Shown here piece after piece: positions 35,311 to 36,612 of a stretch of DNA of 64,000 nt. Every line of letters begins with the position of its first letter. Within the stretch, counting starts at the first letter, position 1. This DNA is from Eledone cirrhosa. Taxonomy: Eukaryota. Below the pieces are notes generated by a model. That model searched no databases and had not been told where the DNA came from. It saw nothing but the letters and a program-made list of their open reading frames with translations. Made by a program: the position numbers and the translations under genes. Location: the NCBI GenBank assembly GCA_964016885.1, contig OZ024743.1:57846001-57910000 (forward strand), given 5' to 3'.

Positions 35311-36612
35311 ATAAGTTGAAAAAAATGAAAACGAAATTTCATTTCTCACTCTTAGTATGGCACTTACTTAAATGTAAGTATGTATGTATACGTACATACA
35401 TATATGTATACAGACGTACAGTAGCATGCATATATATACATATATATATATATATATATATATATATATATATATATATATATATATATATATATATATA
35501 TATATATATATATATATATATATATATATATATATATACACATATATACATATATACATACAGGTACACATACATATATGCACGCATCAGTTTAGCGGAC
35601 GTTTATTACAACGCCGCTTTGTTCGTTTGTTTGTCAACAAACCGAACAGCATGAATTTATGCCATACGGTGTTAAGGCAACCACGTCACCTTTTTGTTCA
35701 ACACTGACACAGGAACGATGTACTAGTTTCAAGCTTGTTAGCTATCATCAGCACCGTTTACCCATCTGCCAGATAGTTGAACGTTCGAAAGTATATACTT
35801 TCCTTATGAAAATTAACGGCTGAGCAGCCTAATTTACATATTGAGTGAGTTAAATCGGTCAGGCATACCGAAAACGATAAGTTGAAAAAAATGAAAACGA
35901 AATTTCATTTCTCACTCTTAGTATGGCACTTACTTAAATGTAAGTATGTATGTATACGTACATACATATATGTATACAGACGTACAGTAGCATGCATATA
36001 TATACATATATATATATATATATATATATATACATAAATATACATATATACATACAGGTACACATCAGTTTAGCGGACGTTTATTACAACGCCGCTTTGT
36101 TCGTTTGTTTGTCAACAAACCGAACAGCCTGAATTTATGCCATACGGTGTTAAGGCAACCACGTCACCTTTTTGTTCAACACTGACACAGGAACGATGTA
36201 CTAGTTTCAAGCTTGTTAGCTATCATCAGAACCGTTTACCCATCTGCCAGATAGTTGAAGGAAAGTATATACTTTCGAACGTTCAACTATCTGGCAGATG
36301 GGTAAACGGTGCTGATGATAGCTAACAAGCTTGAAACTAGTACATCGTTCCTGTGTCAGTGTTGAACAAAAAGGTGACGTGGTTGCCTTAACACCGTATG
36401 GCATAAATTCATGCTGTTCGGTTTGTTGACAAACAAACGAACAAAGCGGCGTTGTAATAAACGTCCGCTAAACTGATGCGTGCATATATGTATGTGTACC
36501 TGTATGTATATATGTATATATATGTATATATATATATATATATATATGTATATATATGCATGCTACTGTACGTCTGTATACATATATGTATGTACGTATA
36601 CATACATACTTA
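35311..36612 (-). mobile_element. Retrozyme-like HHR element (family E): about 1.7 tandem units plus an inverted partial unit
   Basis: Units start at 35311 and 35877; inversion at about 36260. HHRs at 35714-35758 (-), 36192-36236 (-) and 36305-36349 (+). Confidence 0.85.
36305..36349 (+). ncRNA. Type I hammerhead (family E)
   Basis: AACGGTG-CTGATGA-T-AGCT(AACA)AGCT-T-GAAA-CTAG-TA-CATCGTT: 7-bp helix I, palindromic ACTAGT helix III, GUA triplet. Confidence 0.85.

Follow-up and report, generated by a model that had tools for sequence, protein, structure and literature searches.

The 64,000-nt stretch of the Eledone cirrhosa genome analysed here (hereafter, the window) carries at 35311-36618 one insertion, which consists of two head-to-head arms of a non-coding hammerhead repeat (hereafter, the element) within a (TA)n tract (Table 1). 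Unit positions are numbered after a natural 496-nt monomer from an array at G000:C2:346.81 Mb, position 1 being the first base 3' of the predicted cut. The only ORF that overlaps the insertion is a microsatellite-derived frame of 124 aa, and the local GC content is 26-39%, in agreement with the description of non-LTR retrozymes as non-coding, lacking LTR structure and below 50% GC. A sequence-only reading of the window had described a non-coding unit repeated head to tail on the minus strand, with hammerheads 478 nt apart at 36192 and 35714 and with its own TA/CA microsatellite. Strand and spacing hold, the predicted cuts lying after 36199 and 35721 (7 nt from the positions given there), and the sequences of the unit copies bear out the microsatellite. 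The copy, which had been delimited as 35311..36612, is not purely head to tail, since 36258-36618 is an arm in inverted orientation, whose plus strand carries a third hammerhead (36312). Of the two tandem hammerheads, the one at 35751 is intact, and the one at 36229 reads GGTT/CATC in helix I and has lost the pair next to the core. The window thus contains a tandem pair with one of two hammerheads broken, and the family contains full-unit arrays of 14 and 7.

Table 1. Coordinates of the insertion, of the related copy and of other features of the window
Feature	Position	Strand	Description
Whole insertion	35311..36618		Two arms joined head to head within (TA)n, each terminating outward in an element 3' end
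(TA)n target tract	left flank 35279..35310; right flank 36619-36638
Long arm	35311..36276	-	Unit 415-496, then 1-496 (478 nt), then 1-340; ends at the 'long' site (340)
Inverted arm	36258..36618	+	Unit 412-496, then 1-282; ends at the 'short' site (282)
Palindrome, 16 nt	36261..36276		Inside the unit; joins the two arms
Tail, 58 nt	35311..35368	-	Unit 283-340, reaching from one fixed 3' end site to the other
TA/CA microsatellite of the unit	35427..35580		Expanded in this copy
Other copies of the unit microsatellite	near 35995-36060 and 36483-36560
Type I hammerhead, intact	35715..35757	-	Core from 35751; predicted cut after 35721
Type I hammerhead, helix I broken beside core	36193..36235	-	GGTT/CATC; core from 36229; cut site 36199
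Third type I hammerhead, intact	36306..36348	+	Inverted arm; core from 36312; predicted cut after 36342
Subfamily B insertion, in (TA)n	16185..16800		Short-ended minus arm, ~16626 to 16185, its end blurred in TA; long-ended plus arm, 16619-16800
Subfamily B hammerhead	16400..16442	-	C3U core change and helix I mismatch
Short element in TA directly right of the insertion	36639-36720		Inverted ends starting CAGGGTG; presumably akin to a Tc1/mariner MITE
Hammerhead-like motifs of other repeat families	3173; near 16050	+ (3173)
Broken RT-type retrotransposon	11930-15708	-
Mariner-like transposase fragment	27383-27892
Hydra-like PLE endonuclease end	42751 and 43640-44038	-	With its own hammerhead
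Minisatellite, 48 bp	52539-54998		51 copies
Non-LTR retrotransposon	55230-60799		Nearly intact looking; judged by eye, its frames of 704, 427 and 776 aa are endonuclease- and RT-like
Tandem repeat, 111-114 bp	63370-63702		~3 copies

Both junctions of the insertion read TATATTTATATAT. This 13-nt repeat may be a target duplication, indistinguishable from end variation; under the definition used for non-LTR retrozymes, the target-site duplication, when present, is longer than 4 bp. Within the insertion, the first round of both arms carries G70T, which is absent from the next round, and the latter differs from the first round by a 16-nt deletion and other changes. The template would have held at least two to three different units, or the insertion would have been altered later. 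Because the shared variant lies off the mirror position of the palindrome, conversion between the arms is an awkward explanation. Among 11 exact matches, none was found to be the source of the G70T type.

The second copy in the window, at 16195-16624, had been taken as the same unit starting at another point. It proved to be a two-armed insertion of a sister subfamily (B), about 78% identical, whose hammerhead has a C3U core change and, judged from its sequence, is likely inactive.

The hammerhead of the element has a helix I of 6-7 bp with a conserved UA bulge and lower stem, a helix II of 4 bp with an AAYA loop and U.U or G-C at its base, and a helix III of 1-2 bp whose loop is the palindrome ACUAGU. 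From its sequence, this motif has the canonical metazoan type I architecture as defined in PMC4209133, and the minimal PLE-type form (long helix II, unpaired 5' base) was ruled out by the 4-bp helix II. The proposed variation of helix I between GGTG and GATG, both pairing with CATC, was recovered across the family, position 463 being a G.T pair in 141 of 240 copies and an A-T pair in 84. Rfam at its gathering score gave no match in the insertion, and weak matches to HH9 under that score (18.5 bits, E 0.19) were confined to the two intact hammerheads. Low-threshold Rfam matches to microRNA families in the window were traced to the inverted repeat and TA runs. Folded alone, the 76-nt hammerhead was no better than its shuffles (z 0.1-0.75).

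Conservation was assessed on 370 distinct aligned copies, leaving out 62 rows from long arrays. Common variants occurred at 1 of 32 core or paired positions, where the change preserves the pair, versus 88 of 302 positions elsewhere (Fisher p 6e-4); part of the hammerhead sample had been picked by an exact match to positions 481-9, and in the unpicked half the figure was 1 of 16. The hammerhead was complete in 187 of 237 copies. A further family (C), with a 466-nt hammerhead unit in 15 tandem copies at G000:C1636:322-329 kb (L369; also L142 and L249), is 61% identical to subfamily B. It keeps the core, loop 2, helix III and the UA bulge in helix I, and five hammerhead pairs are changed on both sides relative to the element in a compensatory manner; these come from one sequence, and thus one lineage. 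Taken together, the alignments show that the hammerhead is conserved across the element family and family C, with cleavage itself being predicted.

The element is a real, young and very abundant new family of non-LTR retrozymes. That class assignment, already made by the sequence-only reading, agrees with the tandem, non-coding units, the canonical type I hammerhead and the absence of any ORF found attached. In the 3.0-Gb genome (G000), exact matches numbered 16,662 for a 25-nt hammerhead motif and 14,283 for a 32-nt tail motif, with none for the reversed control of either. These matches count units, not insertions; with over 16,000 units of 444-540 nt, the element would total about 8 Mb if most units are full length. 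It was present in three of the four contig runs examined. The largest arrays contain 14 (C2), 25 (C2), 44 (C11) and 54 (C1636) full units. The 44-unit array (G000:C11:6.085-6.108 Mb) is organised in 9-unit and 7-unit higher-order repeats, and in many of its units the helix III palindrome is disrupted by C491G. At G000:C1636:277-296 kb, a 4.6-kb inverted DNA duplication comprises the array end and 2.5 kb of flank; set around a further 4.9-kb inverted repeat, it could be an assembly feature. The inverted four-unit copy there was rejected as a case of multimer retrotransposition, because its inclusion of the 2.5-kb flank marks it as a DNA duplication.

Insertion ends were mapped in 82 stretches, taken in positional order along C1 among the matches listed for the two motifs, a sample biased to exact-motif copies. 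They yielded 102 insertions (one at an edge was dropped), 47 two-armed and 55 one-armed. The 3' ends of 129 of 149 arms fell at 255-290 (mode 282) or 326-345 (mode 340), two sites 58 nt apart, and 116 of those 129 were flanked by TA. The short end (282) lies in the loop of a predicted hairpin. Among the two-armed insertions, 34 combined a long with a short end, two had two short ends and none had two long ends; the other 11 of the 47 had at least one unclassified end. The long-short combination thus occurred in 34 of 36 classifiable cases, for which the probability at even odds is about 1e-8. The 5' ends of the arms were scattered round the unit, and all seven arms scored at position 1 run 3-19 nt past the cut, so copying does not stop at the cleavage site. 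The two arms of one insertion differed by a median of 3.3%, versus 12.2% to other insertions (27 two-armed insertions with at least 60 shared positions), and in 9 of the 27 they were each other's closest relatives; six B-type pairs differed by at least 8%, though the A monomer served as the scoring reference and this raises the values for B.

The sequence-only reading had ascribed the differing start points of copies to a permutation generated by rolling reverse transcription. The mapped arms show that the start points are not random but arise from two fixed alternative 3' ends with variable 5' truncation, and fixed start sites of the Penelope-like element (PLE) type account for the pattern. 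Fixed termini together with an attached PLE ORF had been named as evidence against a circular-RNA origin; the former were found and the latter was not. PMC8557442 describes PLE insertions as having a tail of 30-40 bp together with an inverted truncated copy at one end, and the tail was shown to be the distance between two internal sites at which an enzyme that cuts and extends both strands starts reverse transcription (PMC11167929). By analogy with these descriptions, the two fixed ends and the one-long-one-short rule appear to be the 'tail' signature of PLE reverse transcription, and we consider it very likely that the element is mobilised by a PLE.

The form of the template was approached through an insertion at C1:265.88 Mb, in which three full units and four partial pieces, from both arms, all belong to a single 504-nt type, whose mark is T271G together with a distinctive microsatellite. 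An exact search for the mark gave nine places, three of which are non-adjacent units of the mixed 54-unit C1636 array; two of these are letter-identical to the C1:265.88 Mb unit and one differs by one base. Three other matches have a different sequence background. The neighbours of the marked C1636 units carry G74A and G86A downstream and changes at 372-447 upstream, and the C1:265.88 Mb insertion has none of these. Its first-copied ends (1-282 and 1-339) and the next-copied 341-496 are all the unit's own. Since the neighbours' variants are missing, the ends of the copied monomer must lie between 442/448 and 73, an interval of about a quarter of the unit that holds the cut site and excludes both start sites of reverse transcription; the chance that an interval of this size would hold the cut site is about 1 in 4. 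This insertion appears to need a single-unit intermediate, and the position of the interval points to a circle. On such sequence comparisons, it is likely that the element is at times templated by a single-unit RNA circle. The proposal that a monomer is copied for several rounds is borne out by this one traced source-daughter case and by young arrays, 14, 10 and 7 full units long, which have no internal point variants in common; the window insertion, whose units differ, does not conform to it. A second source trace led only to another homogeneous copy.

It is unlikely, in our judgement, that PLE insertion always proceeds from linear, uncut read-through RNA, with unequal crossing-over in place and a hammerhead that serves only RNA processing or stability. 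The mixed units of the window insertion, three short arrays that alternate two unit types (period 2), the higher-order repeats of the C11 array and haplotype switches all round the unit are what that route would give, and it agrees with the use of unprocessed RNA by PAc in vitro (PMC11167929) and with the local amplification model in the text of bioRxiv 10.64898/2026.07.22.740005. In four long arrays, switches at the cut site occurred in 19 of 50 intervals against 14.9 expected, with no significant enrichment; switches are found all round the unit, as would be expected if long arrays are reshuffled in place. The C1:265.88 Mb insertion, however, would be expected under linear read-through to contain the neighbours' variants: its terminal pieces and upstream sequence are of one type, which never occurs twice running in the source array, so that an unseen homogeneous intermediate would be required. 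Still less probable is a unit looped out as circular DNA by recombination and transcribed repeatedly, the homogeneous multimer RNA then being inserted by a PLE with no RNA circle involved. Arrays do recombine, and the traced case fits equally well if the crossover fell in 448-73 (~25% of the unit); this route nevertheless leaves the conservation of the hammerhead without a reason and would be expected to yield chimeric monomers, the boundaries of which could fall at any point of the unit. Returning to the RNA templates, circle and multimer routes probably both operate.

The genome holds many PLE families, and young copies of the element coexist with intact PLE ORFs. The labels Hydra-like and Neptune-like, which we take to fit some of the residents, are putative and were given by comparing motifs with those described in PMC8557442. 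For one resident PLE protein, the nearest named relative is from Octopus vulgaris (69% identical). The family designated PLE X includes 12 head-to-tail, near-identical full-length copies of 4146-4152 bp with a 1211-aa ORF at G000:C28:42.00-42.07 Mb (L316-L322). Its assignment as an RT/GIY-YIG protein comes from motifs and from its alignment (E 4e-8) with a PLE ORF positive for GIY-YIG; a Pfam search of the protein gave no family. The 12-unit array, which also includes an inverted arm, ends long on one side and short on the other, an architecture like that of the element, and at 50 kb it would be hard to reconcile with a linear RNA template. Among 32 ends of PLE X, 16 were short, 6 middle and 8 long, the main TA-flanked sites being 58 nt apart; its sister (GAAC) had 12 short and 9 long among 24, with main TA-flanked sites 60 nt apart. 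Resident PLE hammerheads are forms with a longer helix II than that of the element. The non-coding part of the very young PLE X (L270) keeps a hammerhead core and helix II with no convincing helix I or III, and its sister (L333) has a complete minimal-type hammerhead.

Neither the ORFs nor the terminal regions pointed to one partner. No ORF belonging to the unit, including one for RT and GIY-YIG, was found, and the PLE fragments that abut copies are of other families. Compared with six resident PLE terminal regions, the element had no DNA homology beyond shuffles (30-185 of 300 shuffles scored as high), the best score being due to contamination by an inserted copy of the element. Likewise, among 110 loci from the PLE searches, the only real matches were inserted element copies. 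Tail lengths are 58 and 60 nt for the X/GAAC pair; judged by eye, they are about 90-97 nt for the Hydra-like family and, in others, about 50 nt, 57-70 nt, about 95 nt and about 115 nt. The agreement of 58 nt with PLE X was rejected as proof of partnership given the tail of about 75 nt in family C, whose ends are likewise of a long and a short kind. Five element arms are joined directly at the 5' end to five different other repeats, mostly PLEs (L147, L344, L120, L128 and L036:4444), none of the five being PLE X, and some of these junctions give one long and one short end across families. Template switching between RNAs may have produced such fusions. That PLE X or its sister is the partner of the element is a tentative suggestion, which we hold to be somewhat doubtful.

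The possibility that the copies are merely 5'-truncated terminal repeats (pLTRs) of an autonomous PLE, with no independent element, is extremely remote: the ends, tail and inversion are indeed pure PLE anatomy, and the comparison covered six PLE terminal regions and the top matches listed in genome searches, but in arrays of up to 54 units without an ORF position 340 is followed immediately by 341-496 and then by another hammerhead, the PLE fragments adjoining a copy come from different families that have hammerheads and ends of their own, and the hammerhead is canonical, not PLE-minimal (as described in PMC4209133).

The reading that we favour, and regard as quite likely, is that a non-coding hammerhead repeat is inserted in trans by the RT and GIY-YIG nuclease of a PLE, at times from a single-unit RNA circle. 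Tandem arrays would be transcribed as multimers, in which a hammerhead with a helix III of 1-2 bp should cut efficiently as a dimer and poorly as a monomer; canonical type I hammerheads with a weak helix III and a palindromic loop are reported to work as dimers (PMC4209133). By analogy with such hammerheads, the released, poorly cut monomers may be ligated into stable circles. Both strands of a (TA)n target would then be nicked by the PLE enzyme, with reverse transcription beginning at unit ~282 for one strand and ~340 for the other, as the observed fixed ends and one-long-one-short rule suggest. Judging from the DNA anatomy, reverse transcription would pass the cut site without a scar and stop at scattered points, and the two cDNAs would be joined head to head. 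A circular template would give arrays of identical units, as in the one traced case, and uncut or multi-unit RNA may give mixed arrays such as that in the window; long arrays would later be reshuffled in place as satellite DNA, in keeping with the higher-order periods observed. For PAc, hammerhead cleavage is described as not needed for insertion in vitro (PMC11167929), and eight of nine Xenopus retrozymes are reported to show no cleavage in vitro (bioRxiv 10.64898/2026.07.22.740005). The full chain of events for the traced case, in which one hammerhead-delimited unit left a mixed array, circularised and was copied round and round by a two-headed PLE enzyme priming each strand at a structure-defined site, on an RNA with no detectable sequence in common with the PLE that encodes the enzyme, is evenly poised in our estimation.

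The element resembles the metazoan non-LTR retrozymes of coral, mussel and axolotl as described in PMC7229834, which likewise have tandem non-coding units with one canonical type I hammerhead each, a helix I of 6 bp, a helix II of 4 bp, a weak palindromic helix III, low GC, arrays of dozens of units and PLEs in the same genome; the axolotl HHR_Amex2 shares the U.U at the base of helix II. It differs in its unit of 444-540 nt with a microsatellite (~170-400 nt in those retrozymes) and in its two kinds of fixed 3' end, its inverted arms and its targeting of (TA)n, the words 'inverted' and 'microsatellite' being absent from the main text of that paper. Cleavage and circles are demonstrated there and are predicted from genome sequence for the element. 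The pLTR-derived retrozymes of Li, Clavereau and Pollet 2026 (bioRxiv 10.64898/2026.07.22.740005) are described as non-autonomous and PLE-dependent, like the element, whose unit length falls inside their range of 51-972 bp. The link of the Xenopus retrozymes to PLEs rests on co-occurrence and pLTR homology (24 of 57 families) and that of the element on insertion anatomy; the text of that preprint lacks the words 'tail' and 'initiation'.

The PLEs described in PMC11167929 (PAc of Anolis) and PMC8557442 share with the element two internal start sites that define a tail, an inverted 5'-truncated arm, tandem copies, AT-rich or (TA)n targets and a hammerhead upstream of the start sites. In contrast to them, the element has no ORF, a tail of 57-58 nt (~75 nt in family C) instead of 30-40, and a canonical instead of a minimal hammerhead; the N-terminal-EN clades of PLEs, in the account of PMC8557442, lack canonical hammerheads. 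The Chlamys non-autonomous PLEs in the same account, such as MRC1, are also non-coding, multicopy, head-to-tail PLE dependants, but generally match their autonomous partner at the 3' end, unlike the element, which had no homology to the six resident PLE terminal regions. A literature search that covered the main text of openly accessible papers found no cephalopod retrozyme, no PLE tails in retrozyme insertions and no unit tracing.

The enzyme that moves animal retrozymes and the copying of circles are put forward as hypotheses in the texts of PMC7229834, PMC4209133, PMC7761336 and bioRxiv 10.64898/2026.07.22.740005. The PLE tail rule (34 of 36) provides a mechanistic fingerprint for that enzyme, and the tracing of private unit types from mixed arrays to homogeneous daughters provides a genomic assay for circle copying. 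With young copies beside intact PLE ORFs, reconstitution in vitro should be feasible. The element, which carries its own TA microsatellite, also makes up a sizeable share of the genome. If true, the circle reading would be direct genomic support for PLE-mobilised retrozymes and for the origin of PLE tandems from circular templates, and the array of twelve 4.1-kb PLE X copies would mean that PLEs themselves roll on circles.
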